From: Sphingomonadales bacterium
Lineage (GTDB): Bacteria; Pseudomonadota; Alphaproteobacteria; Sphingomonadales; Sphingomonadaceae
Direction: 5' to 3'
Length of the DNA: 64,000 nucleotides
NCBI GenBank assembly: GCA_027486895.1
Contig: JAIXOE010000028.1
Coordinates: 25,437-89,436, forward strand
The notes beneath the pieces were generated by a model. The model searched no databases. It was not told the origin of the DNA and saw only the letters and a program-made list of their open reading frames with translations. This document shows, one piece after another, positions 21,591-48,328 of this stretch. The position numbers and the translations under genes are program-made. Numbering within the stretch: the first letter of the stretch is position 1; the number at the start of each line of letters is the position of its first letter.

Positions 21591-21666
<76 letters not shown>

Positions 21667-28236: not shown

Positions 28237-31425
<3,189 letters not shown>

Positions 31426-32664
31426 TCAATGGTCATGGCTCGCGCCCGACTTTTCGATGTCGGCGCGAATGAGAAATGCTCCCTTGGCGGCATAAGGCGT
31501 GCTGGGCTTGATGCCCGAAAGCACCTCGGTCCATTCGGGCGACTTGCGCCCGAGTTCCAACATGCGGACCTCGTAATCTTGACCGTAATTGGCAAAGACC
31601 ACCGTGAAGTCGCGGAAGCGTTGCAATGCTTCGGTGCGCACCGCTAGCGGCACCTGTACCGCGTTGATCGTCACACGGCCACGAAGCGCCATACCGGGAC
31701 GCAACCGTCCACCTCGATTGGGGACCGACGCCCGGACAAGCGCAGTGCCTGCTTCTGCATTGCCGTCGGGCAGATATTGGCCCAGCCGTGCCGCCGCGAT
31801 TGCGGTGCCTTCCATCGTTTCGATCTGCACGGCCATGCCGGGCTGGATTGCGCCCAAATCCTTGGGGAAGATGTTGAACACGACCGTCGTCTGCGCAGGG
31901 TCGGTGATGACATAGAGTGCGCGGTCGAAGGTCACATCGCCGGGGTTGCCATTGCGTTCGGCAACGACGCCGCTGACGGTCGAATAGACCGGATAGACTT
32001 GCAAGGACTCGCTCGACTCGATCCGCGCCAGCAATTGACCGCGCTTCACAGTGTCTCCGACCTGTTTTGTGACCGAGACAATCCGCCCCGGAAACTGGCC
32101 GCGAATCTCCGACCTTGCGGTCGTCGCCAACTGGACTGTCCCGTATAGCTCGCGCGTCTCACCGATGGTCGCAGGCCCCACAGTTTCAATCTCGATCCCG
32201 CCCGCCTTGGCAGCGTCAGCGGTAATCCGTGTGCGGCCTTCGGGGCTAGCATAACGCCAGACATGGCGTTTACCGTTCTCGACCGCGACAACTTCGACAT
32301 CGAAGCTGTGCGGTTCCTCGACCACGCCTTGACCAGTCAGATAGTCCTTCTCGGCCTTGAACGGGAACGTGTTGACCTCACCGCCCAGCCGCTTGAGCGT
32401 CACCGTCAGCTGCACGGTCTTTGCATCGACTGGTTTGCCGTCCTTTGTCGGATATATCCGGAACTGCGGCGGCACACCGTCCTCGAAGATGGTCATTTCA
32501 ACCGCGAAGTCGCCGTCCTTCAAAAGTCGGCCGTTGTGCGGCCCCTTCGCTGGTTCACCTTCCTCGCCATGCTCCTCGGCGGGCTCGCGGCTGCTACCGC
32601 AGGCTGCCAAGGGCGTGATGATAAAAAGCGCGACGGCAAGCCGCTTTATGATTGTCTTTTTCAT
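31426..32664 (-). CDS. czcB: RND periplasmic adaptor subunit
   Basis: Lipoprotein signal, GPHNGRLL N-terminal domain, lipoyl-like GDTVKRGQLL, ends SGASHDH. Confidence 0.9.
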   Translation of the reverse strand: MKKTIIKRLAVALFIITPLAACGSSREPAEEHGEEGEPAKGPHNGRLLKDGDFAVEMTIFEDGVPPQFRIYPTKDGKPVDAKTVQLTVTLKRLGGEVNTFPFKAEKDYLTGQGVVEEPHSFDVEVVAVENGKRHVWRYASPEGRTRITADAAKAGGIEIETVGPATIGETRELYGTVQLATTARSEIRGQFPGRIVSVTKQVGDTVKRGQLLARIESSESLQVYPVYSTVSGVVAERNGNPGDVTFDRALYVITDPAQTTVVFNIFPKDLGAIQPGMAVQIETMEGTAIAAARLGQYLPDGNAEAGTALVRASVPNRGGRLRPGMALRGRVTINAVQVPLAVRTEALQRFRDFTVVFANYGQDYEVRMLELGRKSPEWTEVLSGIKPSTPYAAKGAFLIRADIEKSGASHDH

Positions 32665-33899
32665 GGATTAGTCCCCCTGTCGGCAGCGGCGTCAAAGCGT
32701 CCGGTCAGCCGGTCAATTTCTGTTTGAAGGTCACGGTAGCGGATGACCGCATCGAGCCATTCGGCCTGCGCCTGAATGATCGCGTCGGCTGCACCCTGCA
32801 TGTCGCGGAAATTGAAGCCGCCGCGCGCATAGCCTTCGCGCACCTGCCGGAGCGCCTTGGTCGTCTGCGGATAGACTTCAAGGACGATGGCGTCGGCGCG
32901 GGCACGTGCGGCGTCGGCTTCGGCCCCAAGGCTAGCAAGACGGCGGAGCCGGTCAAGCCTTTGCCCTTCGGCGGTAAGCTCGATCCGAAGCTTCTCGGCT
33001 TGCGCCCGTGCGATATTGCCCTGATTGCGGTCGAAGCGTCCCAGCGGGATAGTCACGCCCGCAACCACCGCGACATCATTGGTCCCGCGAAGGAAGCGTG
33101 CGCCGCCGCTGAGCGTGTAATCCTGTCGCGTCCGAGTCTGTTCAACCGCCACTGCCGCCGAAGCCCGCGCAGCTGCTGCCTGAGCAAGCTCAGCGTCGGC
33201 AACCGCAAGCTGCCGTGCCGCTGGTATGCCGGATAACACCTCGCCCTCAGTCTCAACTTCTTCGGCTCTGCCATTCCAGAACGCAGCAAGTGCCGCGCGC
33301 GCGCCTTCGCGCCTCGCTTGCGCCTCGGTCAGATTGAGCCGCGCTTGCGTCACCCGCGCCGACGCGCTCGTCTCGACGAACAGCGGATCTTTATATCCGC
33401 GCACACGGCGCAATGCTTCCCGCTGCATTTCGACTTCGACACCAAGCCGCGTTTCCGCGATCTCGACAACATAGCCTGCGATCACAACGTCGAGAAACGC
33501 ACGCTGGACGGCGCTGACAAGTTCAAGCCGTGCGACCCGCGACGATGCTTGGGCAACGCCGATGTCACGTTCTGCATAGGCAACACGCGCGTCCCGTTTG
33601 CCACCGCGTTCAATCGTCTGGCTATAGGTGCCAGTGATCTCAGCTTGGCCAAAGACATTATAGGGTCCGCTGCCGATAAGGTTTTCGCCTTCGACGGTGA
33701 CGGTTGGGTTGGGGCGGACGCCCGCTTGGACTCGGCCAGCTTGTGCGGCAGCGACCGCCGCCTCATTGGCGCGGATCGACGGCGCGGCCTCAATGGCCTT
33801 GGCAATGGCTTCATCCAGCGTGAACGGCTCCGCAAAGGCAGCCGTAGCCGGAATGGCCAGCGCCGCCGCCAGCAAGGCGGTGCGCAATTTGGGAAACAT
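32661..33899 (-). CDS. czcC: TolC family outer-membrane factor
   Basis: Signal peptide, RPNPT, IERGGKR, IPLGRFDRNQGNI; first gene of the CBA cluster. Confidence 0.9.
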   Translation of the reverse strand: MFPKLRTALLAAALAIPATAAFAEPFTLDEAIAKAIEAAPSIRANEAAVAAAQAGRVQAGVRPNPTVTVEGENLIGSGPYNVFGQAEITGTYSQTIERGGKRDARVAYAERDIGVAQASSRVARLELVSAVQRAFLDVVIAGYVVEIAETRLGVEVEMQREALRRVRGYKDPLFVETSASARVTQARLNLTEAQARREGARAALAAFWNGRAEEVETEGEVLSGIPAARQLAVADAELAQAAAARASAAVAVEQTRTRQDYTLSGGARFLRGTNDVAVVAGVTIPLGRFDRNQGNIARAQAEKLRIELTAEGQRLDRLRRLASLGAEADAARARADAIVLEVYPQTTKALRQVREGYARGGFNFRDMQGAADAIIQAQAEWLDAVIRYRDLQTEIDRLTGRFDAAADRGTNP

Positions 33900-33908
33900 A
33901 TTAAAACT

Positions 33909-33970
33909 CCTGAACCGGATGACACGTTAAAGGGTCGGGCGCGACGCCCGCCCTAACGGCGCGGTTCAGG
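33909..33970 (-). promoter_or_regulatory. SD-sequestering mRNA hairpin upstream of czcC
   Basis: CCTGAACCG / CGGTTCAGG 9-bp perfect stem linking the upstream ORF stop to the czcC SD, with an inner GC-rich hairpin at 33932-33953. Confidence 0.65.
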
Positions 33971-34304
33971 CAGAGGGTGGTTCGGTGGGGGGTGCCTGAC
34001 TGAAAGAGGTCAGCGGGTTTGCACGGTGGAATGACAACAGCGCCTTCGCGGAGGCCGCAACGAGCGCAATGTCAGTCGTCCGTGCGTCCAGCGCGGTCGG
34101 GCAGTGATGATGGTGAAGGCTTTCACCCGCACCTTCATGCGAGGGTGCTTCGTCGCCGTGATAGTCAGTCATCGCGTCATGACCAAAGCTAACGCCGTGT
34201 TCTGTGTGATGGCTTGCCGGTTCCTCATGTGCGACCGCAGGCGCATGGATCGTGCTTGCGACAAGCGCGAAAACAAGAATCAAGCGGGCGAGCAAATACT
34301 TCAC
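33966..34304 (-). CDS. Small secreted His-rich protein ending PPTEPPSA (CzcI-like / leader candidate)
   Basis: GTG start with a GAGGA SD, signal peptide, HHHHC at residues 64-68, C-terminal proline motif. Confidence 0.7.
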   Translation of the reverse strand: MKYLLARLILVFALVASTIHAPAVAHEEPASHHTEHGVSFGHDAMTDYHGDEAPSHEGAGESLHHHHCPTALDARTTDIALVAASAKALLSFHRANPLTSFSQAPPTEPPSA

Positions 34305-34348
34305 AAGTCCTCGCTTAGTCGTGGCTCCCGGTTTGGGCAAATAGTTCG

Positions 34349-35143
34349 TCATTCGGAAGGGGCTTCAATTGCACGGCGCAAGTCGTCGGGAACAGGCATC
34401 GGTTGAAAAGCGCTGACGTTCGAACGCCCGGTATTACCGACCGGGATGCGTCCGGTCAGCGCGCCCAAAGGCGCAAGCGCGAGCCGGACAAGTTGCCCTA
34501 CCGTCTCACGCCAGTCGCGTTGTTCGACCGCAAAGCCGAGCATCGACACATGACTGGCCAGATGCAGCCCCAAATGCGGCTGCGATACGATGTGCGCTCG
34601 TTCGAGGTGCAGCCATGCAGTGGCCTGCTCCCCGGACGCTCGTGCGTTGCGAAATAAGGTCATTTCATCCGCGATGACGCGGCGCATCGGCAGCGTCCGC
34701 GCAAGCCCGCGCCATCGCCGCTGCCTGTGCGAATAGAAAATCTGGGCAAACCCCCAAATGAACGGGGTCAATATTCCGGCAGAAATTTCGACGTTATCGC
34801 TATAATGTGTCCCGCCACCGGCATCCGGCGCAATCGTAATCCAATGGTCCCACTTGGGAATAAGCGTGCTGTAGCCATTGTCGCGCAACCGCTTTGGCCA
34901 TTCGCCGGTTTCAGGCTCGTGGAGCGAGGTCACAATCCACTGCGTCCCGAAAGGGATAAACCCGAACAGACGCAACTTGACCTGATAGCGCCCGCCGGGC
35001 TGAAAGGCGTCGAGCGAGGTTTCGCCAACAGGAATGAAGCACACCATCGGCCATGCAATATGCTGCAACAGGGGCGCGGTCTGAACCTCTGCCCAAACGG
35101 TCGCGGTCGGCAGGTCGATCCTAGTCGAGCGGGAAACTTTCAT
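34349..35143 (-). CDS. SRPBCC-like domain fused to DUF3703
   Basis: Real start is ATG 35143 (ATGA overlap). N-terminal SRPBCC-like part; C-terminal HLERAHIVSQ and GRIPVGNTGRSNVSAFQPMPVP. Confidence 0.7.
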   Translation of the reverse strand: MKVSRSTRIDLPTATVWAEVQTAPLLQHIAWPMVCFIPVGETSLDAFQPGGRYQVKLRLFGFIPFGTQWIVTSLHEPETGEWPKRLRDNGYSTLIPKWDHWITIAPDAGGGTHYSDNVEISAGILTPFIWGFAQIFYSHRQRRWRGLARTLPMRRVIADEMTLFRNARASGEQATAWLHLERAHIVSQPHLGLHLASHVSMLGFAVEQRDWRETVGQLVRLALAPLGALTGRIPVGNTGRSNVSAFQPMPVPDDLRRAIEAPSE

Positions 35144-35766
35144 GCTGCAACCGACCGCAATTCGGCGTTCGCCTGCCGGAACACCTGAACGCCGCCAGTG
35201 AGCGCAAGTCCCGCCATGATCGAGGCAACAATCAGGTCGGGCCATGCGCTGCCGGTCCCAAAAACGCCAAGCGCTGCCAGCATCACAGCGACATTGCCAA
35301 TGGCGTCGTTGCGCGAGCATATCCAGACCGAGCGCATGTTCGCATCGCCGGTGCGGTAACGGTAAAGCATCAAGGCCACACCAACATTGGCTGCTAGCGC
35401 CAACGCGCCGATTGCGCCCATCATGGTCGGGTCCGGTTCGGTACCGTTGATGAAAGCAAGCACCGCGCTGGCAAAAACCCAGGCGGCAAAGCCAAGCATG
35501 AACAGCGATTTGAGCAATGCCGCCCGCGCCCGCCATGCCAGGGCTGCCCCGACGACCGCCAGACTGACTGCATAGTTCGCAGCATCGCCAAGAAAATCGA
35601 GCGCGTCGGCTTGAAGCGCGCGGCTGTCCGCCGCCGCGCCTGCACCCATTTCCACGAAGAACATGGCGGCATTGACGATTAGCGCAATCCAGAGAATGCG
35701 CCGCCAGCGCGGATCGGCCTTGGCCGTTTCGCTCCCGCAGGCGCTTTCGCAACAACTGTCCGCCAT
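35140..35766 (-). CDS. Short CDF-type cation transporter lacking the C-terminal cytoplasmic domain
   Basis: N-terminal CCESAC, ALQADALDFLGD and WICSRNDAIGN; 208 aa. Confidence 0.8.
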   Translation of the reverse strand: MADSCCESACGSETAKADPRWRRILWIALIVNAAMFFVEMGAGAAADSRALQADALDFLGDAANYAVSLAVVGAALAWRARAALLKSLFMLGFAAWVFASAVLAFINGTEPDPTMMGAIGALALAANVGVALMLYRYRTGDANMRSVWICSRNDAIGNVAVMLAALGVFGTGSAWPDLIVASIMAGLALTGGVQVFRQANAELRSVAA

Positions 35767-35802
35767 TCAACATCCTTCTCGACAAATCCCGAGTCGGACA
35801 TC

Positions 35803-35833
35803 TATCTACACCCTGTAGCAACTACAGGGTCAA
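35803..35833 (-). promoter_or_regulatory. MerR-type promoter/operator (CadR/PbrR-like)
   Basis: TTGACC-19bp-TAGATA on the minus strand with a perfect dyad ACCCTGTAG-caa-CTACAGGGT (35810-35830). Confidence 0.88.
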
Positions 35834-35850: not shown

Positions 35851-36258
35851 GTGAAAATCGGCGAACTCGCGAGTGCAACGGCAACCAAGGTCGAGACGGT
35901 GCGCTACTATGAAAAGATCGGCCTGCTGCCTCCGCCTGCGCGCACATCGGGGAATTACCGTGCCTATGGCAGCGAACATCTTGCCCGCCTGTCATTCATT
36001 CGCCGCGCGCGTGATCTCGGCTTCACGCTGGAAGCTGTGCGGGAATTGCTCACGCTGTCGGACGACAAGGCACAATCGTGCGAGGCAGTCGATGGCATCG
36101 CCCGCGTCCACCTCACCGAAATCGACCGCAAGGTTACTGATTTGACCGCGCTCCGCAACGAACTCGACCGTGTGATCGGCTCCTGCCGCCACGGGACGGT
36201 CGCCGATTGCAAAATCATCGAAACATTGGGGCCAAGAGTAAGAGCCAACATCGTTTAG
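35851..36258 (+). CDS. MerR family regulator, three Cys (CadR/PbrR-like)
   Basis: VETVRYYEKIGLL HTH; Cys in SCEAV and in C-x7-C (CRHGTVADC). Confidence 0.9.
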   Translation: MKIGELASATATKVETVRYYEKIGLLPPPARTSGNYRAYGSEHLARLSFIRRARDLGFTLEAVRELLTLSDDKAQSCEAVDGIARVHLTEIDRKVTDLTALRNELDRVIGSCRHGTVADCKIIETLGPRVRANIV

Positions 36259-37093: not shown

Positions 37094-37612
37094 CTCAAAC
37101 CTTCCTTGTAGCGAAGCCGCACTGGCTGCGGCATGCGGCTCTGCCTTCCGGCGAGGATGGGAGGGGGAGGGAAAGCTGAATCGCTACCCTTGGCGCGGGC
37201 CAGCGGGCGCAAAGCGACCGCCACACGGGGGTGGCTATTCTGCTTTGGGAACGAGAGGGCAAAGCCCTTGGCGTTCCCACACGATCAATTGAACGGAGGC
37301 GGTTAGCCTCCCCTAGCCGCCACGCGGAAAAACGACTGCACCCTTGCACAAAACGACGCCAGCCGGACGCCATGCGCCCGGGCCTGTGGGCCAGCGGGCA
37401 TTCGGCAAGGAGAGTGGCAAGAGCGCCAGCGGGTCAGCTCAAGAACGCCGCACCCTAGGGAGCGCGAAGCGCGGGGAAGAGTGCGACCCTAAAACCTCCC
37501 GCTCGTCGAACTCCGCTCCCGATCGTCACCCGAATGGGCCGGGACTACAGGCCCGGTCTGCGCCAGCGGATAGAGCGGGTTGCCCGTAAGGGCAGCGCCT
37601 TAGCTTTATAAT

Positions 37613-38002
37613 TCAACTAGGTTCAAAGGCCTCGATAATCGGACATCGCCCATCGCCGCCCTCGGCACATTCATCCGCCAAGCGCCGAAGCGATTTTCGC
37701 GCGGACTGGAGTGCCGCAATTCTCTCGTCAATCTCAGCTATCCGCTTGTTTGCGAGTTCGCGCGCCCTCGCCCGGTCTTCGGTAGCGTCCAAGGCAAGCA
37801 GTTCGCCGATCTCTGCAAGCGTGAATCCTCCGGCCTGTGCCGCTCTGATAAAACGCAGACGGCTGACGTCAGTTTCGTCATACCGCCGAACCCCGCCGTT
37901 ACGTTCTGGCTCAACGAGCAGGCCTCGCCGCTGGTAAAAGCGGACGGTTTCGACGCCCACTCTGCCCGCCGCTGCCAATTTTCCTATCGTCATTGCATTC
38001 AT
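37613..38002 (-). CDS. MerR family regulator, two Cys (CueR-like loop)
   Basis: TIGKLAAAGRVGVETVRFYQRRGLL and C-x7-C (CAEGGDGRC); no Cys at the MerR C82-equivalent position. Confidence 0.88.
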   Translation of the reverse strand: MNAMTIGKLAAAGRVGVETVRFYQRRGLLVEPERNGGVRRYDETDVSRLRFIRAAQAGGFTLAEIGELLALDATEDRARARELANKRIAEIDERIAALQSARKSLRRLADECAEGGDGRCPIIEAFEPS

Positions 38003-38005
38003 CGC

Positions 38006-38037
38006 TTGACTCCGTACTATGCTACGGAACCTATATA
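38006..38037 (+). promoter_or_regulatory. MerR-type promoter/operator of mer-like sequence
   Basis: TTGACT, dyad TCCGTA-N6-TACGGA, extended 19-20 bp spacer to TATATA. Confidence 0.85.
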
Positions 38038-38072
38038 GGCTGGGTGACGTTATCTGCCAACAAGGAACACCT

Positions 38073-38849
38073 ATGACCCAAGCCGCAATTTCAACGCCAG
38101 CGAAAGCCAGTGCCGCCGCCAAAACCGCCACCATCTATCGCATGGTGATGCCGAACCATACCTGCCCTTATGGTCTGAAGGCGCTCGACCTGCTCAAGCG
38201 CAAGGGCTTTACTGTCGAGGACCGCTGGCTGACAGCGCGCGAAGAAACCGACGCGTTCAAAGCCAAGCACAACGTCCAGACGACACCGCAAATCTTCATC
38301 AGCGGCGAGCGTATCGGCGGACATGACGATCTCCGCCGCTACCTCGGCCTGTCAGTCGCCGATCCGAAGGCGACCACCTATCAGCCGGTCATAGCGCTGT
38401 TTTCAATGACCGCCTTGATGGCGCTGGCTGCGAGTTTCGCGGTCTATGGCTCGCCTTTCACCGGGCGCGCCGCCGAATGGTTCATCGCCTTCAGCATGAT
38501 CATCCTCGCGATGCTCAAGCTACAGAATGTCGACAAGTTTGCGACAATGTTCCTGAACTACGACCTGCTCGCGAAACGCTGGGTGCCTTACTCGCGCATC
38601 TATCCATTTGCCGAAGGGCTGGCTGGCGTCCTTATGGCGGCGGGCGCGCTCAACTGGCTGTCGATCCCGGTCGCTTTGTTTATTGGCGGCATTGGTGCGG
38701 CATCGGTATTCAAAGCGGTCTACATCGACAAGCGCGAGCTAAAATGCGCCTGCGTCGGTGGCGATAGCAATGTGCCGCTGGGCTTTGTCTCGCTCACCGA
38801 GAATGTGATGATGGTCGGGATGGCCATTTGGATGATTTTCGCACATTAA
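38073..38849 (+). CDS. Glutaredoxin-MauE/DoxX fusion membrane protein
   Basis: TCPYG and TTPQIFISGERIGG (Grx fold) followed by a TM region with YDLLAKRW and CACVGG. Confidence 0.82.
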   Translation: MTQAAISTPAKASAAAKTATIYRMVMPNHTCPYGLKALDLLKRKGFTVEDRWLTAREETDAFKAKHNVQTTPQIFISGERIGGHDDLRRYLGLSVADPKATTYQPVIALFSMTALMALAASFAVYGSPFTGRAAEWFIAFSMIILAMLKLQNVDKFATMFLNYDLLAKRWVPYSRIYPFAEGLAGVLMAAGALNWLSIPVALFIGGIGAASVFKAVYIDKRELKCACVGGDSNVPLGFVSLTENVMMVGMAIWMIFAH

Positions 38850-38880
38850 GTTCGCGATCTGACAAGCGTTTGGTAGAAGT

Positions 38881-38902
38881 CGCCCGACCAGTTGGCCGGG
38901 CG
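38881..38902. terminator. Hairpin between convergent genes
   Basis: CGCCCG..CGGGCG stem with an inner CCA/TGG pair. Confidence 0.45.
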
Positions 38903-38920
38903 CTTCCTCAATGCAGTTAT

Positions 38921-39073
38921 TTAGTCGTCACAGCAGTCCATTGCCTGCTCGCAACATGCGTCGAGTGCCGCGCAACAGGCGCCCACCGCGTCTGCAACAG
39001 TCGAGGCTTGGGCTGCAAAGGCAGCTGGCGCAACAAAAAGCAGGGCGGCAGCAGCGGCAAAATATTTGGTCAT
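38921..39073 (-). CDS. 50-aa secreted Cys-rich micropeptide with three CC pairs
   Basis: GGAGAG SD, signal peptide ending AFA, mature part AQASTVADAVGACCAALDACCEQAMDCCDD. Confidence 0.65.
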   Translation of the reverse strand: MTKYFAAAAALLFVAPAAFAAQASTVADAVGACCAALDACCEQAMDCCDD

Positions 39074-39163
39074 AAACTCTCTCCGTTGGGAAGCTGGAAT
39101 AGCGTCGCAAAATATCGGCGCTATCAATGATATTCGGGCCAGAAACGCCAACGGTTACAATGT

Positions 39164-39592
39164 TTAATGCTTAGCAAATACGCTCGTTTTACCGGAACCG
39201 AAGGCAATGACGTTATAGCGGTCTGCCGGATATCCCGGCGCTTCCATGCCAGGCGAGCCTAAGGGCATACCAGCAACTGCTAGCCCACGGACACCTTTGG
39301 GCTTTGCTGCCAATACCCGCTTCATATCAGCGACGGGGACATGACCTTCGAAGGCCATGCCGTCGATAAGCGCGGTGTGGCATGATGCGAGGCCAGCAGG
39401 CAATCCGACCCGCCGTTGCAACGCCGGACGGTTCGCATCGTCGATGACTTTGACGCTGCGACCGAACGCCTTGCGGACTTGCGCGGCCCATTTTTCGCAG
39501 CAACCGCAGCCGGGATCACGGTGCATCACTGCCTCGCTTGCCGCCAACGCCGGTGTGGCAACGAGAGCTATTGCCAAAAAGAACTTTCGCAT
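39164..39592 (-). CDS. DUF411 metal-binding periplasmic protein
   Basis: HRDPGCGCCEKW, SCHTA, FEGHVP and GLAVAGMPLGSPGME. Confidence 0.92.
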   Translation of the reverse strand: MRKFFLAIALVATPALAASEAVMHRDPGCGCCEKWAAQVRKAFGRSVKVIDDANRPALQRRVGLPAGLASCHTALIDGMAFEGHVPVADMKRVLAAKPKGVRGLAVAGMPLGSPGMEAPGYPADRYNVIAFGSGKTSVFAKH

Positions 39593-39652
39593 TTTGAATT
39601 TCCTTCAACGAAGAAACGCGGAGAGCCGTCACCAGCCCTCCGCGCCGTCTAC

Positions 39653-39856
39653 TTACTTATGGTCCATGCCACCCATGTCATGGCCTTCATGCTCGTCACC
39701 GGACTTGGCGTCCTTGTCCTTGCAGCAGGCCATCTTGCCATGTTCGTCCTTTTTGCAACAGCAGCACTCCTTTTCAGGGGTAGGTGCTGGATCGGCGGCA
39801 AAGGCAGCGGTGGACATGGTGAGCGCGAGAGCACCCAAAAGATACTTGGTTTTCAT
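39653..39856 (-). CDS. 67-aa secreted Cys/His/Met-rich micropeptide
   Basis: GGAG SD, signal peptide ending AFA, ECCCCKK..MACCK..HEGHDMGGMDHK. Confidence 0.75.
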   Translation of the reverse strand: MKTKYLLGALALTMSTAAFAADPAPTPEKECCCCKKDEHGKMACCKDKDAKSGDEHEGHDMGGMDHK

Positions 39857-39869
39857 GATTTAACTCCGA

Positions 39870-40208
39870 TTATAGATTGAAAAAACAGTGCGCGCCGTGC
39901 CTTCGCGGAGGCGGGATTGGCGGTTTGAGTGCGCCGCCCGACAATTGCGCGCTGGCCGAAAGATTCGGGACCGCGATGACCCGCAAGAGCTGCGTTACGT
40001 CGGCGGTTGCCACGGGCGGAAAGGCACAGGCATGACACGAACGCGCCGCATCGCCACCTTTCTGTCCACCCTTTCCGTCACGATGATCGGGAATGTCCTC
40101 GCAATCCGCCATCATTGCGATTGTTTCTGTTTGAACAGGCGCGGCGCAAATCGGTGCTGCCCGCAGCACGAGCGCAATTGCGAGAAAACAGGCAGCGAGT
40201 ATTTTCAT
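39870..40208 (-). CDS. Small secreted CxxC / polyproline protein (CutF/CruR-like leader candidate)
   Basis: ATG 40208 (ATGA overlap with the PepSY gene), signal peptide, DC at 35-36, CHAC at 58-61, PPIPPPR at 96-102. Confidence 0.65.
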   Translation of the reverse strand: MKILAACFLAIALVLRAAPICAAPVQTETIAMMADCEDIPDHRDGKGGQKGGDAARSCHACAFPPVATADVTQLLRVIAVPNLSASAQLSGGALKPPIPPPRRHGAHCFFNL

Positions 40209-40927
40209 GCCGTGCGCCGCTTGCGCCGAAACGGCCAGCGGATGAACAGTAACACCGAGCCTGCAACGCCGAGGATCAGGCCTCCGATGGCAAATGCCAG
40301 CAGCCACCATGTGTTGAAATTCTCATGGTTCTTCCAATCCATGATGTGGAGGCTCCAGAAAAAATCATAGAGCCGCCATGTGCCGGTGCGAACGGCGGTG
40401 ATTTTCCCGGTATCGACGGCAACAAAAATACTGGTGGCATCGGGGTCAGCATAAGCGATACGCCACGCAGGCAGAGCAGCCCGATATTCAGGGCTTTCAG
40501 TCGTGACGCGCGATGCCTTGGAAACCGGCTTCTCGGCTGACTTCCACGCGGCATTCGCAATGGCCGTTGCTTGGGCGGCACCGACTGGCGGAATTAGCTC
40601 GCCTGTTTGGGCATCGAAGAGTTTGATGCCTTGGGCGGTCGTCACTTCCGCAACCGCGACACTTCCCATCATGTGCCAGTTGATAGCTTGGACCGGCGCT
40701 CCAGCCATTGCGTTTATCTGCGCCGGATCGGCGAACTTGATGCCTGCCGGAATGATCATCACCGTTTCACGGTCTACCAAATGCTCACCGCGCACCTTCT
40801 CGATGGGCAGGAAGCTCATAATTACGCCACTGGCGAACCAGATCAGCAACTGCGCGCCAATAACCAAAGCCAACCATTTGTGGATACGGCTTGCCGTTAG
40901 ATGGATACGGGTGCGTCTGCTGCTCAG
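40205..40927 (-). CDS. PepSY-associated TM helix protein (probable non-canonical CTG start)
   Basis: RIHKWLALVIGAQLLIWFASG and WRLYDFFWSLHIMD. The conserved HKW motif lies upstream of the track's TTG start at 40873. Confidence 0.78.
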   Translation of the reverse strand: MSSRRTRIHLTASRIHKWLALVIGAQLLIWFASGVIMSFLPIEKVRGEHLVDRETVMIIPAGIKFADPAQINAMAGAPVQAINWHMMGSVAVAEVTTAQGIKLFDAQTGELIPPVGAAQATAIANAAWKSAEKPVSKASRVTTESPEYRAALPAWRIAYADPDATSIFVAVDTGKITAVRTGTWRLYDFFWSLHIMDWKNHENFNTWWLLAFAIGGLILGVAGSVLLFIRWPFRRKRRTA

Positions 40928-41850
40928 AACCAGATCCTTATCCCTGCCACAAGGCTGATAGTTTCAGGATCTTCGCCTGAAGCCCGAGAAAAGCGCGCGG
41001 TTGCACCTGTCTGCTTGCGCCATTCCACGCCAATGTAGGGCGCTATTTCCTGCTCGATCTCATAGCGCAGGCGTAACCCGGCTTCGAAATCTGTCAATCC
41101 TGACCCGACACCAATAGCGCGAATGTCCTGAAAAGCGATATTGGCTTCGATCCTCGGCTGCAAAATCAGCGATTGGGTGATCCGCTGGTCGTATGATGCC
41201 TCCAGCCTCGCGCGCACCTCGCCCTTGTTCGAGACAAAGCCAGCCGCATTCATCTTGAACCAATAGGGGGCTATGCCCTCCACACCGGCGACAAGATAGG
41301 TGCGCGACGGGTCGGGCTTTATGTCATACCGGACACCGGCTTGCAGGTTCCAATAGGGCGCTATTGCGCGCGAATAGAGTGCTTGCAACTCCAGATCGTC
41401 AATGCGTTCACCGAATGCGCCTTCGCCTTCAAACTTCACCCCAAACCGGTTGATGTTACCGCCGGTAAAGGCCTCGCCTTCAAACCGGTAGCTTTCTTCA
41501 CCCTTTTGGAAGCCGACTTCGAGCAGGTCGATGGTCACCAACGAATAGCCCATGCCACCTACTTCATAAGCCAGCTCCTTGCGAGACTTTGCCATAATGT
41601 CAGCGCCAAATATCGCATCAGCCGCATGATCCTCTGGCGGGGCTGGCGCTGGCGCATTACCGACCTCGTCGCTCGGAGGCATTTCAGCCGCACTTGAACC
41701 CATGTCATGACCGGCATGGGGATCGTTTTCGGGAGGTGGCTTGGTAGGCTCGGCCTTGACGGCGGGCATGTCATGCCCCTGATGCCCCGATTGTGCGAAC
41801 GCGGGGGTTGCCAGCAATAATGCGGCAGGAAGCAGCAACAAGGTGTTCAT
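40924..41850 (-). CDS. copB: Copper resistance outer-membrane protein B
   Basis: His/Met-rich N-terminus, YSRAIAPYWNLQAGVR, GLRLRYEI..APYIGV, terminal WF. Confidence 0.93.
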   Translation of the reverse strand: MNTLLLLPAALLLATPAFAQSGHQGHDMPAVKAEPTKPPPENDPHAGHDMGSSAAEMPPSDEVGNAPAPAPPEDHAADAIFGADIMAKSRKELAYEVGGMGYSLVTIDLLEVGFQKGEESYRFEGEAFTGGNINRFGVKFEGEGAFGERIDDLELQALYSRAIAPYWNLQAGVRYDIKPDPSRTYLVAGVEGIAPYWFKMNAAGFVSNKGEVRARLEASYDQRITQSLILQPRIEANIAFQDIRAIGVGSGLTDFEAGLRLRYEIEQEIAPYIGVEWRKQTGATARFSRASGEDPETISLVAGIRIWF

Positions 41851-43622
41851 TGCCCTTCCTCTTCATGCCGCACAGTGACAACACGGAACATTCCAGCGTG
41901 CATGTGCATAAGCATATGGCAGTGGAACGCCCAGTCGCCCATCGCGTCCGCCGTGAAATCGAATGTCACCTTGGCACCCGGCAGTACGTTGACCACGTTC
42001 TTACGCGGATATCGCCCTTTCTGTCCGTTCACCACTTCGAAGAAATGGCCGTGCAGATGGATCGGGTGCGGCATCATGGTGTGGTTGATGAGGTTCACCC
42101 GCACCCGCTCATTGTGGCGGAACGGCAATGGCTCAGTCTTCTCGCTATATTTTTCGCCGTCCATCGACCACATATAGCGCTCCATATTGGCCGTAAGGTG
42201 GACGTCGATTTCACGCGATGGCGTACGCTGGTCGGGATTAGGTTCAAGCGCGCGGAGCTGGCTAAGCGTCAGCACGCGGTGCGGCACTTTCTCCAAACCG
42301 GTTGGCCGCTCGCTGTTCCGATCCAATGGCATCGGCGCAAGACTGGCTACACCCGGTCCCATCTTCACCTGCGGCGCGACCGACGGGTCACGCATGTTCA
42401 TAGAACTGTGATCCATGCTTCCCATTGCAGCCATTTCTTCCGGCATCATATTGCTATGGTCCATGCCTGCCATGTCGCCGCCACCGCTGCCATGATCCAT
42501 GCCCATGTCTTTCATGGTGAGCAAAGGACGTTCACGAAGCTCGGGTATTGGTGCGGTCATGCCCATTTGCGGAGCCAAAGTTGCGCGGCACTGGCCTGAA
42601 CGGTCAATCGATTCAGCGATAAATGCGTAAGGAATCGCTTCTTTAGGCTCAATGATCACGTCCCACGTTTCGGCAACCGCAATCTGGAACTCGTCGGTTT
42701 CAACAGGCGTTAGCGGCAGCCCATCCGACGCAACAATCGTCATCGGCAGGCCCGGAACGCGAATGTTGAAATTGCTCATCGCCGCTGCATTGATAATGCG
42801 CAGCCGCACCCGCTCGCCGGGTTTAAAAATGCCGGTCCAATTGCCCATGCTGTCATGGCCGTTGATCAGATAGTGATAATAAGCGCCGGTGACATCGGCG
42901 ATGTCGGTCGGGTCCATCAACATCTGGCCCCACATCATGCGTTCGGACAACGGCTGATCTTCGCCTTTGGCAAGGCCAGCAAAGGTCTGTTTACGCTTGT
43001 TGAAATAGCCTGCCTTCTGCTTCTGCTTGGTAAAGTTCACATGCGCGTGCGCGAAACTCCAGTCCGACAACACCAGGACATGTTCACGGTCATAAGCAAT
43101 CGGGTCTTTGCCCGCAGGATCGACGATCAACGCGCCATACATCCCCATCGCTTCCTGCATATGCGAATGGCTGTGATACCAATAGGTGCCGTGCTGCTTC
43201 ATCGGAAATTCGTAAGTGAAGCTCTCGCCGGGGCCGATGCCGGGATAGCTTACGCCGGGAACTCCATCCATGTGGAAAGGAAGCAGCATCCCATGCCAGT
43301 GAACCGACGTATCTTCGTCGAGCGTGTTGCGCACCACGAGCTTTACATTCTGGCCTTCACGCAGGCGAATGAGTGGTCCCGGTAGCGTCCCGTTGATGGT
43401 ATAGGCATGGCCGGTTTTCTTGCCGATCTTGAACGCCGATTGCCCGACGCTGACTTCGATATTATCGCCCGATAACATGCCGGGTTTACCGGCGAGGCTG
43501 TGCAACCCATGCGACCCACTTTTTGCCCAAGCGGGAAATAAAGGCGCAAGCGCCATCCCACCGCTCGCAAGCGCTGCACCGCGCAAAAGGTGTCGGCGAT
43601 CTACCGGAGTTTTCAGGGTCAT
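41847..43622 (-). CDS. copA: Copper resistance multicopper oxidase
   Basis: Tat signal DRRHLLRG; Cu motifs HWHG, WYHSH, HPIHLHGH and HCHMLMHMHAGM; Met-rich insert. Confidence 0.96.
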   Translation of the reverse strand: MTLKTPVDRRHLLRGAALASGGMALAPLFPAWAKSGSHGLHSLAGKPGMLSGDNIEVSVGQSAFKIGKKTGHAYTINGTLPGPLIRLREGQNVKLVVRNTLDEDTSVHWHGMLLPFHMDGVPGVSYPGIGPGESFTYEFPMKQHGTYWYHSHSHMQEAMGMYGALIVDPAGKDPIAYDREHVLVLSDWSFAHAHVNFTKQKQKAGYFNKRKQTFAGLAKGEDQPLSERMMWGQMLMDPTDIADVTGAYYHYLINGHDSMGNWTGIFKPGERVRLRIINAAAMSNFNIRVPGLPMTIVASDGLPLTPVETDEFQIAVAETWDVIIEPKEAIPYAFIAESIDRSGQCRATLAPQMGMTAPIPELRERPLLTMKDMGMDHGSGGGDMAGMDHSNMMPEEMAAMGSMDHSSMNMRDPSVAPQVKMGPGVASLAPMPLDRNSERPTGLEKVPHRVLTLSQLRALEPNPDQRTPSREIDVHLTANMERYMWSMDGEKYSEKTEPLPFRHNERVRVNLINHTMMPHPIHLHGHFFEVVNGQKGRYPRKNVVNVLPGAKVTFDFTADAMGDWAFHCHMLMHMHAGMFRVVTVRHEEEGQ

Positions 43623-43667
43623 AGGGAATCCATATTTAGGTGCTGACCATGATACGCAGGTCAAAGA

Positions 43668-44231
43668 CTAATCCCTCAATAATTCGTTCAAGCTTGCGCG
43701 CGCACGGTAAAGCCGGGTTTCGACGGTTTTCTCGGTAACGCCCAACGCTTCGGCAGCCTCGGCCTGCGACATGCCTTCTATAGCGCGCAGGATGAGCGCT
43801 TCTCGGAGTTTCAAGGGTAAGTAACCGATGGCAGCACTCACGCGGCCCAATTCTGCGCGGTCGCCTGCTTCTGTTTCGGGCGAAGCGCCGTCGCTTGCCA
43901 AGTCGAAGGCGTCTTCGATGGGCTGCGCACGGGTAAAGAAGGAACGCACCGCTCGCCGCCTTGCCCAATCGCGGCATTTGTTGATCGCAATTCGCGAAAT
44001 CCAGAGTTTGAAAGGCCGCTCGCGATCATATCGCTTCAACGCGGCGAAGGCTGAGACGAAACTCTCCTGCGTGACATCGAGCGCCTCTTCGCTATCGCGG
44101 ATTGTGTTGCGAACAAGCCGATATACTGGGTCTCGATAGCGCCGCAGGAACTCGCGATACGCTCGTTCCTGCCCACCGAGTGCGAGTGCCGCCAGCTCGC
44201 CATCGCTACACTGGCCTAAATCGAGGCTCAC
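43668..44231 (-). CDS. ECF sigma factor (CnrH-like)
   Basis: DVTQESFVSAF, WISRIAINKCRD and TVETRLYRAR; last gene of a Y-X-H-like triad. Confidence 0.9.
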   Translation of the reverse strand: MSLDLGQCSDGELAALALGGQERAYREFLRRYRDPVYRLVRNTIRDSEEALDVTQESFVSAFAALKRYDRERPFKLWISRIAINKCRDWARRRAVRSFFTRAQPIEDAFDLASDGASPETEAGDRAELGRVSAAIGYLPLKLREALILRAIEGMSQAEAAEALGVTEKTVETRLYRARASLNELLRD

Positions 44232-44668
44232 CGCGCTTCGGCGGTCAGCGCCTTGACCACGGTCTTGTCAAAGCGCCGCGCTTGGTCGGGATTCATGACA
44301 GCGCGCATCTCGAACAGATGTTCTAGCGTGGATTTTTGCATTTCGCCCATGACATGATGAACATGATCGACCGCCGCCGTAACCTTGGGGCCATAGCCAT
44401 GTTCGGCCTCAATTGCTTCGGCAAGCCGCGCGTTGGCCGCGCGCATGTCAAGCTCCAGCGCCTTCTTTCGCACGGCAAAGCGCGCCTCTATGGCTTCGAT
44501 TTTCGCTTCCTGAGCGGCGTCCAGCTTCAATTCATTGTGCAAAAAGGCATGAAGCTCGCTCTCGCTCTTGCGCGGCTGCTCGCTGAATGTTCGTGCCGCA
44601 TATACTCCCGCTACGGCTGCGATGAAGGCAATCAGCGCAATCAGCCCGATCCGCCACCCCGAACGCAT
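44228..44668 (-). CDS. Periplasmic heavy-metal sensor (CnrX-like)
   Basis: N-terminal TM, HAFLH (H-x3-H) and EHLFEM (H-x3-M), matching the CnrX metal site. Confidence 0.85.
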   Translation of the reverse strand: MRSGWRIGLIALIAFIAAVAGVYAARTFSEQPRKSESELHAFLHNELKLDAAQEAKIEAIEARFAVRKKALELDMRAANARLAEAIEAEHGYGPKVTAAVDHVHHVMGEMQKSTLEHLFEMRAVMNPDQARRFDKTVVKALTAEAR

Positions 44669-44931
44669 CAAAGCAAATCCAGCAAAGTCGATGGCGCGAG
44701 CGCGGTTTCTGCAATCACCAAATCACCACCAGCCGCGCGCGCCGGGGTTGGCAGTATAGAGCCGCCTGCATAGCCGATGCCAAGGGCAACAAACGCAGCA
44801 GCCGACAAGAGCCGCGATGTCGCGCGTGCTTCGCTTTGGCGTTCGGCCAAGCCAGCCAGAACGGCGTCATCAAGCTGCAACAACCTCGCCGGGACCGACA
44901 TTGCCCCTAGCCTTTGCAATAAATCGTCCAT
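44668..44931 (-). CDS. Anti-sigma factor (CnrY-like)
   Basis: 87 aa, single TM, C-terminal LAPSTLL; first gene of the triad. Confidence 0.72.
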   Translation of the reverse strand: MDDLLQRLGAMSVPARLLQLDDAVLAGLAERQSEARATSRLLSAAAFVALGIGYAGGSILPTPARAAGGDLVIAETALAPSTLLDLL

Positions 44932-44960
44932 CGAATGGTCCTCATGTTCTTAGTCCCTCT

Positions 44961-44988
44961 TATACGCAGCGCGGCCCTCTCGCCCTCA
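44961..44988 (-). promoter_or_regulatory. ECF (CnrH-type) promoter for the cnrYXH-like/copAB operon
   Basis: TGAGGG-N16-CGTATA on the minus strand. Confidence 0.7.
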
Positions 44989-44996
44989 AGAAAAAT

Positions 44997-46924: not shown

Positions 46925-47115
46925 TTGCGCCGCTTCCTCCCGACCCGATATGCGTGAGGATAAACGACGCTGCTCGCATGATCGGCGTCGGTCGCACCAA
47001 GCTGTATGAGCTGATTGCGACAAACGAGATTGAAGTCGTTAAGCTCGGCAAATCGACGCGCGTTACAACAGCAAGTCTGCGCGCGCTAGTCACGCGGCTT
47101 CGCGCATTGGAGTAG
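46921..47115 (+). CDS. Excisionase-like helix-turn-helix protein
   Basis: VRINDAARMIGVGRTKLYELI; convergent with the integrase. Confidence 0.8.
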   Translation: MIAPLPPDPICVRINDAARMIGVGRTKLYELIATNEIEVVKLGKSTRVTTASLRALVTRLRALE

Positions 47116-48274: not shown

Positions 48275-48328
48275 AAAGTTCGATTCCCTGACAGGAAACC
48301 ATACCGCCAAAACCGGGGGTATTTCGGT

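Follow-up and report, generated by a model that had tools for sequence, protein, structure and literature searches.

A 50-codon open reading frame (ORF) at the end of a copper-resistance operon in the 64-kb stretch of DNA analyzed here (the window) is, judging from comparison of orthologous sequences, a genuine protein-coding gene under strong purifying selection that is focused on a core of paired cysteines. Its product, the CC peptide, is a member of an undescribed family, and the invariant feature of that family, in the sequences compared, is the presence of three vicinal cysteine pairs rather than an exact heptad. We propose, with a probability of about 0.5, that the CC peptide works in the periplasm and binds soft thiophilic metals through its cysteine thiolates, the metal being Cu(I) in the subfamily to which the window's peptide belongs.

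The peptide gene and its family

The gene lies on the minus strand, a detail absent from the original prediction, with an ATG start at 39073-39071 and a TAA stop at 38923-38921. The gene, its parts, and the elements on its flanks are as follows.

38921..39073, minus strand: CC-peptide gene, 50 codons plus TAA
39014..39073, minus strand: predicted Sec signal peptide, MTKYFAAAAALLFVAPAAFA, codons 1-20, with a putative cut after AFA
38924..39013, minus strand: predicted mature 30-aa peptide, AQASTVADAVGACCAALDACCEQAMDCCDD, from translation and composition
38930..38977, minus strand: core with three vicinal Cys pairs, codons 33-48, CC-x5-CC-x5-CC, all six Cys invariant
39077..39084, minus strand: Shine-Dalgarno sequence, GGAGAGAG, 3 nt before the ATG
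39132..39159, minus strand: intergenic block TGTAACC-N16-CGAAT, beginning 5 nt past the stop of the DUF411 gene
38875..38907, minus strand: strong 3' hairpin past the stop of the CC-peptide gene (-26.7 kcal/mol, z -4.85)

Translation gives MTKYFAAAAALLFVAPAAFAAQASTVADAVGACCAALDACCEQAMDCCDD, 50 residues with cysteines at positions 33/34, 40/41, and 47/48, exactly as had been predicted. Divided at the predicted cut (MTKYFAAAAALLFVAPAAFA|AQASTVADAVGACCAALDACCEQAMDCCDD), it leaves a 30-residue mature part that is Ala-rich and acidic, again as claimed: 9 Ala, 6 Cys, 5 Asp, 1 Glu, and zero basic residues, with a computed pI of ~4 and a mass of 2.9 kDa. A six-frame translation of the window contains a single CC-x5-CC-x5-CC pattern, against a chance expectation of 2e-4 to 6e-4 and 0 matches in 200 shuffles.

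Conservation had been named as one point on which the prediction would stand or fall, and the ORF is conserved. Among 12 distinct orthologous DNA versions, the CC-peptide frame is the sole frame that stays open throughout. Over the whole gene, pS is 0.65 versus a pN of 0.098 (dN/dS of ~0.07); in the CC core (codons 32-50), the corresponding values are 0.74 and 0.03 (dN/dS of ~0.01). The N-terminal signal segment has a dN/dS of 0.07, and the linker (codons 21-31) is variable (0.25) and holds all of the indels, every one of which comprises whole codons. Both TGT and TGC are used at each of the six Cys positions in the orthologue alignment. The Shine-Dalgarno sequence had been called good; its GGAGA is invariant in nine diverged loci. 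A 76-aa version of the ORF that initiates at a TTG (extending to 39151) was rejected because the in-frame upstream sequence varies between loci. In addition, metatranscriptome contigs, which are unstranded, of low depth, and may include DNA, span both the ORF and the DUF411-peptide junction.

Homologues of the peptide fall into ~85 protein clusters, and those that carry a taxon label come from Sphingomonadales or other Pseudomonadota. Exactly six cysteines, arranged as three vicinal pairs at the C terminus, are present in all 96 family sequences. The exact seven-residue periodicity that had been predicted holds for the window's peptide but not for the family as a whole: the spacing between pairs is 7/7 in 81 of the 96 sequences, 6/7 in 10, 7/6 in 4, and 6/5 in 1. 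Some of the 6/7-spaced relatives have Gly-rich spacers (e.g., CCGLGMDCC), which argues that the Cys pairs rather than the heptad are essential. A scan of metagenome contigs with a degenerate DNA pattern yielded, among the matches listed, nearly all low-complexity repeats of Cys codons, along with at least one extra distant member (L056).

The family is unnamed in the resources that we searched. Profile searches of Pfam and NCBIfam with the CC peptide returned 0 families at an E value of ≤0.1, and precomputed Pfam domains were absent from the ~85 homologue clusters. A literature search on the core motifs found no match. When the region from 37500 to 44000 was compared with PLSDB plasmids by megablast, three distant partial matches were recovered, none with an annotated copy of the CC peptide. 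The suggestion that the gene is small enough to be missed by annotation was therefore partly right: it has been called in some NCBI and JGI records, always as "hypothetical protein," and has no Pfam or NCBIfam model.

A signal peptide had also been predicted, and the N terminus has the expected layout of a Sec signal peptide, with a positive n-region (K3), a hydrophobic stretch (Y4-P16), and an AxA site (A18-F19-A20|A21). We looked for a twin-arginine motif (RR) and a lipobox (L-x-x-C) in this segment and found neither. The AxA site is near-invariant across the family, A18 and A20 being present in 69 of 70 members and F/Y19 in 68 of 70. Two residues past the predicted cut, position 23 is Pro in 52 of the 70, and together these features form the pattern expected of signal peptidase I substrates. 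When the family profile was searched against the PDB, the sole matches were weak (E values of 1-9) and fell on the N termini of other proteins, most of them signal- or transit-type segments. From the sequence, we infer that the CC peptide is exported and cleaved.

According to the original prediction, the spacing of the cysteines would place six thiols on one face of a helix. In part, our results agree. The AF2 monomer model has a helix at residues 23-44, the family hydrophobicity profile has a hydrophobic-moment peak at 100 degrees per residue, and hydrophobic positions (26, 30, 33/34, 37, 40/41, 44, and 47/48) can be fitted to a heptad register with Cys at d/e and V/L/A at a. However, the model is of low confidence (mean pLDDT of 62, pTM of 0.32), the profile covers only ~3 heptads, and the 7/7 register is broken in 15 of 96 relatives. 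These shifted spacings and the Gly-rich spacers argue that a regular helix is not universal in the family, and the profile and model together lend weak support to an amphipathic helix with Cys at heptad d/e.

Genomic setting and flanking elements

The surroundings of the gene bear out the copper context that had been proposed for it. The order of genes in the operon is copA-copB-PepSY_TM-p115-pep67-DUF411-peptide, and the neighborhood contains the following features.

37613..38134, minus strand: MerR-family metal-sensing regulator, divergent from Grx-MauE (profile search)
38019..38849, plus strand: Grx-MauE fusion membrane protein, convergent with the peptide gene (Pfam Glutaredoxin and MauE)
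39164..39592, minus strand: CopG-like DUF411 protein with a signal peptide and a CGCC (CxCC) motif (Pfam DUF411, 1.4e-23)
39653..39856, minus strand: pep67, a second secreted Cys-rich peptide with CCCC...CC and a His/Met tail, GHDMGGMDHK (ORF translation)
39870..40208, minus strand: p115, a secreted protein of 112 aa that contains Cys and has a Pro-rich motif at its C terminus (no Pfam family)
40205..40873, minus strand: PepSY_TM membrane protein (Pfam match just under the gathering score; conserved in the operon)
40924-41850, minus strand: copB (Pfam CopB, 3.7e-82)
41847-43664, minus strand: copA multicopper oxidase, with Cu-oxidase domains recorded in orthologous loci; the true start is probably near 43622
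43668-44231, minus strand: ECF sigma factor at the head of the cop cluster
44228-44671, minus strand: Metal_resist/LTXXQ periplasmic protein at the head of the cop cluster

Conservation beside DUF411 had been expected, and among loci of the window's subfamily that keep upstream sequence, the DUF411 gene lies directly upstream of the CC-peptide gene in 19 of 19. The window's DUF411 protein matches PDB 6WIS with an E value of 8.5e-24, with its CGCC, SCHT, and GMPxGSPGME motifs aligned. The neighboring pep67 is kept in all untruncated operons; its homologues form at least 128 clusters, of which the named ones are "hypothetical," and it has no Pfam domain. The whole cop operon is carried by an integrated mobilizable metal-resistance island of 26.8 kb, inserted at tRNA-Lys. 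Since the island sequence recurs unchanged in many environmental metagenomes, the CC peptide is part of a circulating metal-resistance module.

On the other side of the gene, the Grx-MauE protein has a CPYG motif in its Grx domain and a KCACVGG loop (CXC), both conserved in six loci, including one from Blastomonas. It adjoins the CC-peptide gene in the window and ~8 subfamily loci, and about half of the subfamily loci are without it within 6 kb. For the window's MerR-family regulator, the highest score is against mercury MerR, and the cut-offs of the MerR, ZntR, and CueR equivalogs are not reached. In Blastomonas, a family member lies in a CsoR-(Grx)MauE-peptide-PepSY_TM cluster beside copABCD, with Grx-MauE co-oriented and immediately upstream. 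Other members occur in MerR/MerT-like clusters, which encode a MerT-like protein with CC in TM1 and a Cys-rich 79-aa ORF with a GDCCVFC motif, and one is in a plasmid MerR-115aa-peptide cluster. Some distant members are found in housekeeping contexts (hemE-hemJ-peptide-rho; near mutL), and one adjoins CN_hydrolase and DUF1223, the latter being thioredoxin-like. With such contexts, the link to metals does not extend across the family.

Conserved elements flank the gene on both sides. Within the intergenic block, TGTAAC, TTGG, and GAA are invariant in nine loci, and the full TGTAACC-N16-CGAAT pattern has its sole match in the window at this site. RNAalifold pairs CCGTTGG (39154-39148) with CCAACGG (39089-39083), with two compensatory changes. 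The block may be an ECF-type promoter of the peptide gene or, alternatively, a helix arm that pairs with the Shine-Dalgarno region. We considered whether the island's own ECF sigma factor uses promoters of this type; upstream of the ECF operon, the conserved element is a different one (CGTATA), and the window holds no second copy of the block, so this idea is unsupported. The transcription unit likely ends at the 3' hairpin, opposite which the convergent Grx-MauE gene comes to its own end. Equivalent 3' hairpins with other sequences occur in four further loci, so that structure is kept and sequence is not. An Rfam scan of 38700-39900 gave only a sub-threshold match, on this terminator hairpin.

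Proposed function and competing explanations

On our preferred reading, Sec export and removal of the signal peptide would release into the periplasm an acidic, Ala-rich peptide of ~30 residues with six thiols. The thiolates would bind a soft metal, which would be Cu(I) for the window's subfamily and possibly Ag(I) or Hg(II). The peptide's role in the Cop system would be that of a small buffer, a sink, or a hand-off partner, probably in concert with the CopG-like DUF411 protein, whose gene is immediately upstream and which has a CxCC motif of its own. Vicinal CC pairs are established ligands of Cu(I) or Hg(II), as in CopG (CxCC), human Cox17, the C-terminal CC of MerA, and MerT. We infer metal binding from sequence and gene neighborhood, as we do the identity of the metal, the stoichiometry, and any oligomer.

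A more specific version of this reading, which we regard as possible but doubtful, is that the peptide is a self-assembling mini-metallothionein, in which metal drives the formation of a helical bundle whose d/e Cys pairs line a polynuclear metal-thiolate core. The peptide alone would be disordered or monomeric, and Cu(I), or Ag(I)/Hg(II), would trigger assembly of multiple copies. Copper-induced Grx-MauE would set the redox state, and metal would be exchanged with CopG. On this view, nature would have in this family an equivalent of the designed coiled coils with substituted Cys.

It is also conceivable, if rather unlikely, that the six cysteines do not store metal but alternate between thiols and disulfides, either from chain to chain or from pair to pair. 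The periplasm is oxidizing, and free thiols there usually require a reducing system. As a redox peptide, the product would serve Grx-MauE, the CopG-like "Cu-thiol oxidoreductase," or both as a substrate, an electron donor, or a sacrificial redox buffer, with possible roles in reducing Cu(II) to Cu(I) or in soaking up copper-catalyzed disulfide stress. Such a role would suit the position of Grx-MauE, with its invariant CXC, next to the gene in the window and ~8 subfamily loci, its co-oriented position directly upstream of the Blastomonas member under a CsoR-like repressor, and the thioredoxin-like DUF1223 beside one distant member. Furthermore, MauE is reported to act like DsbB, in that it complements dsbB and its CXC active site is essential (bioRxiv 10.64898/2026.03.05.709764), and CopG/CutG has been described as a Cu-thiol oxidoreductase (PMC8456105). 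A DsbB-like, disulfide-forming MauE as a recurrent neighbor would favor oxidized cysteines and keeps open the disulfide scenario, which the original prediction had named as one that would refute it. However, DUF411 is always present in the subfamily, whereas Grx-MauE is missing within 6 kb from about half of its loci, and in the window, Grx-MauE and the peptide gene are convergent and not cotranscribed. The redox reading also fits metal binding, for which reduced thiols would be needed.

We judged it improbable that copper is not the primary ligand and that the peptide instead scavenges Hg(II) or some other soft metal in the periplasm, in the manner of MerP, with the ion passed to a MerT-like CC membrane protein. 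Some members do follow MerR and a MerT-like protein, or MerR and a 115-aa protein, in positions that resemble that of merP, and the window's regulator scores highest, under the cut-off, against mercury MerR. Yet merA was absent from the window ORF scans, neither merA nor merB was seen in the window or in these MerR-containing loci, and the peptide has no HMA match in Pfam. Moreover, in the window's subfamily, DUF411, copA, and copB accompany the peptide gene in 19 of 19 loci, and the regulator beside the Blastomonas member is CsoR-like, from a family of Cu(I) sensors.

Small membrane proteins are frequently modulators, and the CC peptide might be one if its signal peptide were left uncleaved, anchoring it in the inner membrane with a periplasmic CC tail that modulates or senses for PepSY_TM, Grx-MauE, or an ECF anti-sigma system. 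Membrane proteins of the PepSY_TM or MauE type are recurrent neighbors, and the N-terminal segment is conserved beyond what is typical (dN/dS of 0.07). This reading is nevertheless quite improbable given the near-invariant AxA (A18 and A20 in 69/70), Pro23 in 52/70, an h-region of only ~13 residues, and the weak PDB matches to mostly signal- or transit-type N-terminal segments.

MauE belongs to the same broad clan as DoxX. Bufferins, which are Sec-exported RiPP copper metallophores that protect against copper by periplasmic chelation, are likewise small, signal-bearing, Cys-containing products encoded alongside a DoxX-clan membrane protein (PMC11626156). By analogy, the CC peptide could be a RiPP precursor whose cysteines are modified by enzymes, either before Sec export or after it, for example through S-methylation or through conversion to thiooxazoles of the bufferin kind, and in some loci, a SAM methyltransferase gene does adjoin the gene for the peptide or for DUF411. 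We consider this very unlikely. Conversion of Cys to thiooxazoles in bufferins needs an MNIO (DUF692) and a DUF2063 partner (PMC11626156), and genes for MNIO/DUF692, DUF2063, or radical-SAM proteins were neither found among the window ORFs scanned with Pfam (nearly all of at least 90 aa, with all large ORFs from 22.6 to 56.5 kb among them) nor recorded in 12 related contexts. The methyltransferase is missing from the window and most loci, and the bufferin precursor families (DUF2282, BUF_6/12Cys) are unrelated in sequence to the CC peptide.

A reading without any functional peptide, in which conserved DNA or RNA gives rise to the ORF as a by-product or the ORF is a regulatory leader, is hardly credible: the ORF is very short and has conserved nucleic-acid elements on its flanks, but synonymous sites are near saturation while the amino-acid core is invariant, the other frames are all broken, and, as the gene is the last before a terminator-like hairpin, there is nothing downstream to attenuate. 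A bacteriocin or toxin-like disulfide-rich peptide was rejected on the grounds that there is no exporter or immunity gene and that the position in cop operons is fixed.

Relation to known systems and significance

Metallothioneins have a fold and function that are set by metal-thiolate clusters, and one of them, mycobacterial MymT, is a copper-induced Cu(I) binder of ~5 kDa. The CC peptide resembles metallothioneins (SmtA/BmtA, MymT) in being very small, ~20% Cys, and rich in CC/CxC-type motifs, and its composition (6 Cys in 30 residues, 2.9 kDa) is consistent with that functional class. Known bacterial metallothioneins are cytosolic and lack signal peptides. In contrast, the CC peptide has a signal peptide and a periodic three-pair layout and is Ala-rich and predicted to be helical. 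A Pfam search gave no match between it and metallothionein sequence families (e.g., Metallothio_Pro).

Two further analogies are functional only. SilE and PcoE are small periplasmic "metal sponges" that fold into helices upon binding Ag(I) or Cu(I), although their ligands are His/Met and not Cys. Designed coiled coils (TRI/CoilSer) carry Cys at heptad a/d and bind Hg(II), Cd(II), As(III), or Pb(II); unlike the CC peptide, they are synthetic, with about four heptads and one Cys layer. Among natural proteins, Csp1 and Csp3 have Cys thiolates on helix faces that line a Cu(I)-storing core, and Csp1 is exported. However, a Csp is a single chain of at least ~120 aa that forms a four-helix bundle, with single Cys and Tat export. 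The CC peptide has a 30-aa mature part and one predicted helix of ~25 residues, would have to oligomerize, and has no Pfam or PDB homology that would make it a Csp. Copper storage proteins of the periplasm have been documented (e.g., bioRxiv 10.1101/2025.05.01.651437).

CutF of the Rhodobacter capsulatus cutFOG operon is a Pfam-less protein with a Sec signal and a Cys motif, is encoded with a multicopper oxidase and the CopG homologue CutG, and is hard to detect as a protein (PMC8456105). The CC peptide, too, is small, Pfam-less, and signal-bearing, and its operon includes genes for a multicopper oxidase and a CopG homologue. CutF differs in having 118 aa, one CXXXC, a C-terminal PP motif, and a gene upstream of the oxidase (PMC8456105), whereas the CC peptide has 50 aa and three CC pairs and is encoded downstream of the CopG homologue. 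CutF-like proteins are defined by a length of <170 aa, no Pfam domain, a signal peptide, CXXXC, a PP motif, and an adjacent MCO gene (PMC8456105), and the CC peptide has neither CXXXC nor a PP motif. The product of p115 (39870-40208) is closer to CutF than the CC peptide is. CopG/DUF411 (6WIS), the invariant genomic partner, is similarly periplasmic and holds copper with a vicinal-Cys motif (CxCC), but it has a thioredoxin fold and ~125 aa and is not homologous to the CC peptide.

In Gram-negative bacteria, the handling of periplasmic copper is generally regarded as mainly Met/His-based, because thiols are vulnerable in an oxidizing compartment. The CC peptide is short enough for chemical synthesis, so the central claims could be tested quickly, and it illustrates how micro-proteins are left unnamed even when gene callers detect them. 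If our interpretation is true, a conserved, exported 3-kDa peptide that is 20% Cys would add a thiolate component to periplasmic copper handling, as would pep67. The poorly understood CopG/DUF411 would gain a candidate partner, and a copper-induced thiol-disulfide enzyme of the MauE type would be linked to metal resistance.

Coding status and family of the CC peptide

The CC peptide is a putative secreted protein with six cysteines, encoded as follows:

ATG 39073-39071 to TAA 38923-38921, minus strand: CC-peptide open reading frame (ORF), 50 codons, translation MTKYFAAAAALLFVAPAAFAAQASTVADAVGACCAALDACCEQAMDCCDD

Translation of the minus strand bore out the original prediction of a 50-residue product with Cys pairs at 33/34, 40/41, and 47/48. 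The Shine-Dalgarno sequence (SD), which had been called good, is GGAGAGAG, 3 nt ahead of the ATG, and was invariant among the nine diverged loci compared. The expected signal peptide and Ala-rich, acidic mature part were likewise recovered. The N-terminus has a classic Sec arrangement (K3, a 13-residue hydrophobic core, and AFA/A), and predicted cleavage leaves 30 residues (2.9 kDa, computed pI of ~4), among them 9 Ala, 6 Cys, and 6 acidic residues but none that is basic. In six-frame translation, CC-x5-CC-x5-CC occurs once in the window, against a chance expectation of 2e-4 to 6e-4 and no matches in 200 shuffles.

Close relatives formed 14 clusters by protein search, while a profile search of 1.8 billion representatives together with a second indexed search yielded a wider family of about 85 clusters. 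Genomes and metagenomes also supplied 12 distinct DNA orthologues. When the six frames were compared, only that of the CC peptide was open in all 12. Synonymous sites were nearly saturated (pS = 0.65), compared with a pN of 0.098, and dN/dS was 0.07 in the signal peptide, 0.25 in the linker (codons 21-31), and about 0.01 in the core (codons 32-50). All indels fell within the linker and comprised whole codons. Both TGT and TGC occur at each of the six Cys positions, while the residue never varies. A strong hairpin (around -25 kcal/mol, z of -4 to -5) follows the stop by 10-20 nt in every locus examined, with the same structure in differing sequences. Judged by the open frame, low dN/dS, whole-codon indels, SD, and hairpin, the ORF is a real protein-coding gene under selection, and its selected part is the Cys core. 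Contigs in metatranscriptome assemblies cover the ORF and its junction with the upstream gene; being unstranded and shallow, they are only consistent with transcription.

The peptide had no match in Pfam or NCBIfam, and no homologue carried a precomputed Pfam domain. Source names were always "hypothetical protein," save two evident JGI mislabels. The window peptide itself, without any change, is encoded on 88 contigs, and its relatives have NCBI records (e.g., WRH76762.1 and MEQ1537636.1). The gene is sometimes called by annotation pipelines and never named, so the suggestion that annotation would miss it holds for a family name or model but only in part for gene calling. In a profile search of the PDB, all matches were weak (E of 1 to 9) and paired residues 1-30 with N-terminal, mostly signal- or transit-type segments of other proteins, and literature searches with the core motifs matched no paper. 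Taxon-labelled members belong to Sphingomonadales (Sphingorhabdus, Sphingomonas, Sphingobium, and Blastomonas) or unclassified Pseudomonadota.

Cysteine pairs and helical register

Across the family, a signal peptide ending in AAFA or AYA is followed by a linker of ~11 residues and then the Cys pairs. Exactly six Cys in three vicinal pairs were found in 96/96 sequences examined, with the last pair 0-3 residues from the C-terminus. The exact heptad that had been proposed is present in the window copy and in 81 of the 96 (7/7 spacing) but not in the other 15 (6/7 in 10, 7/6 in 4, and 6/5 in 1), and the spacers are rich in Gly in some subfamilies (e.g., CCAIGACCGLGMDCC).

In the family profile, the mature part has a single clear hydrophobicity peak at 100 degrees per residue, with hydrophobic positions at 26, 30, 33/34, 37, 40/41, 44, and 47/48 and polar ones at 28, 35, 42, and 49. 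This pattern reads as a 3-4 repeat in which V/L/A occupy position a and Cys occupies d and e. The idea that all Cys share one helix face thus fits most members, but an AF2 monomer (70-sequence alignment) placed a helix at 23-44 with a mean pLDDT of only 62, and the Gly-rich relatives break the register. Those relatives indicate that the conserved requirement is the Cys pairs rather than the heptad, much as the metal cluster dictates the fold in metallothioneins.

The cop operon and its mobile island

Conservation beside DUF411 had been named as a check. In all 19 loci of the window subfamily that keep upstream sequence, the gene lies ~90 nt downstream of the DUF411 gene, even where an insertion sequence has eliminated the remaining operon, with DUF411 surviving only as a fragment. 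The window DUF411 protein aligns with CopG (PDB 6WIS; E = 8.5e-24) with CxCC, SCHT, and GMPxGSPGME intact. The operon order is ECF sigma/Metal_resist, copA, copB, PepSY_TM, p115, pep67, DUF411, and CC peptide. Two further secreted proteins of this operon contain Cys, and one has a counterpart on another contig:

39653-39856, minus strand: pep67, a second conserved secreted Cys-rich microprotein, MKTKYLLGALALTMSTAAFA/ADPAPTPEKECCCCKKDEHGKMACCKDKDAKSGDEHEGHDMGGMDHK
39870-40208, minus strand: p115, 112 aa, secreted, with Cys motifs DC...SCHAC and a C-terminal Pro-rich PPIPPP
L150, 6625-6972: p115-like protein, 115 aa, with CTVAC (CXXXC) and PPVP, directly preceding a CC-peptide family member on a plasmid

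Besides a CCCC run and a CC pair, pep67 bears a His/Met tail such as periplasmic Cu(I) sites typically have. No untruncated operon lacks it, and its family is larger than that of the CC peptide (at least 128 clusters, the named ones all "hypothetical," with no Pfam domains). p115 has no Pfam family; it and its L150 counterpart resemble CutF-like proteins described beside multicopper oxidases (PMC8456105).

Between pep67 and DUF411 (39615-39646, minus strand), a 14-bp GC-rich terminator-like hairpin precedes a T-rich tail, a hint that expression levels may differ between pep67 and the DUF411/CC-peptide pair. The spacer between DUF411 and the peptide (39083-39159, minus strand) holds an invariant TGTAAC..TTGG...CGAAT block that begins 5 nt past the DUF411 stop. 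RNAalifold paired its CCGTTGG with a CCAACGG overlapping the peptide's SD (7 bp, two compensatory changes, nine sequences). The block may serve as an ECF-type promoter, as a translational sequester in read-through mRNA, or in both roles. The window holds no second copy of it, and the conserved element ahead of the island's ECF sigma operon (about 44960-44990) is a different one, CGTATA.

The operon lies on a mobile element flanked by housekeeping genes, with mreBCD/PBP2/rodA at one end and che genes at the other:

21591-48482: integrative mobilizable element, 26.8 kb, inserted at the 3' end of tRNA-Lys(CTT) (21591-21666)
21652-21668 and 48466-48482: bounding 17-bp direct repeat CCTCAGCGTCTACCATT
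47090-48385: tyrosine integrase
22629-25514: MobA/TraI relaxase
28237-35821 (minus strand) and 35851-36258 (plus strand): CzcCBA-type RND system, two CDF transporters, a DUF3703 gene, and a second MerR-family regulator

We class the element as integrative mobilizable because it carries an integrase and a relaxase but no type IV secretion system. Its cargo of cop, czc, and MerR metal genes makes it a multi-metal resistance module. More than 20 metagenomes, drawn from widely differing habitats (hydrocarbon, biofilm, algal, lake, sediment, and sludge), carry every sampled 31-mer of the 851-nt stretch around the peptide (38850-39700) unaltered, which agrees with a recent spread of the island by horizontal transfer.

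Elsewhere, neighborhoods vary. In Blastomonas, a member of a different subfamily sits in a CsoR-like, (Grx)MauE, peptide, PepSY_TM arrangement divergent from copABCD, and another member, on a plasmid, comes after MerR and a 115-aa secreted Cys protein. A few distant members have housekeeping or otherwise unrelated surroundings: hemE-hemJ-peptide-rho, near mutL, by CN_hydrolase/DUF1223, or inside an ICE.

Candidate functions

The original interpretation is supported in part: the real, conserved, DUF411-linked gene stands, and the strict heptad is not family-wide. At roughly even odds (about 0.5), we propose that the CC peptide is an exported thiolate ligand. It would reach the periplasm, bind Cu(I) and possibly also Ag(I) or Hg(II), and serve the Cop system as a small buffer or as a partner that hands metal on, probably together with CopG.

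The main rival, in which the peptide takes part in thiol-disulfide chemistry together with Grx-MauE and/or CopG, is appreciably less probable. It draws on the first of two neighboring genes:

38019-38849, plus strand: Grx-MauE, a glutaredoxin-MauE fusion membrane protein with CPYG in the Grx domain and an invariant KCACVGG loop
37613-38134, minus strand: MerR-family regulator with a C-terminal loop C-x7-C-P, divergent from Grx-MauE

According to a 2026 preprint, MauE is able to substitute for DsbB and requires its CXC loop (bioRxiv 10.64898/2026.03.05.709764), and KCACVGG and CPYG are kept in the window and in all orthologues compared. By hydropathy, the Grx domain would be cytoplasmic and the CXC loop periplasmic, on the assumption that the long segment 195-237 crosses the membrane once. 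The fusion looks like a copper-stress-induced MauE-type thiol-disulfide enzyme. It is convergent with the CC-peptide gene in the window and about eight loci, and absent within 6 kb in the others; at further loci it has an added DUF305 domain (L006) or is placed under a CsoR-like repressor (L022). The thiolate-ligand and thiol-disulfide readings do not exclude each other, and Grx-MauE might oxidize the peptide or keep it reduced.

A MerP-like Hg scavenger is unlikely. Some family members come after MerR, a MerT-like protein, and a Cys-rich ORF with GDCCVFC:

L024, 6320-6559, plus strand: uncalled 79-aa ORF containing ...GDCCVFCSYGTVKCPP..., between the MerT-like gene (CC in TM1) and a CC-peptide family member

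This ORF has no Pfam match and resembles the "GDCCVxC" proteins of mer-like clusters. Given the predicted cleavage site, we hold an uncleaved membrane-anchored modulator to be somewhat less likely still. That the gene encodes a RiPP precursor is improbable: Pfam scans of nearly all window ORFs of at least 90 aa, including every large ORF at 22.6-56.5 kb, found no MNIO/DUF692, DUF2063, or radical-SAM protein. With such selection on the core, it is very improbable that no functional peptide is made.

The CC peptide is like metallothioneins, Csp copper-storage bundles, CutF, bufferins, and SilE/PcoE in possible function, but it has no homology to them, and it failed each membership test run for these known systems. 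We rejected CutF (neither CXXXC nor a PP motif is present), bufferin (no MNIO neighbor), and Csp (not a single-chain bundle). On these comparisons we classify it as a new family among the small secreted Cys-rich accessory proteins of copper-resistance operons. It is cheaply testable and bears on how the periplasm might use thiols to handle metals.
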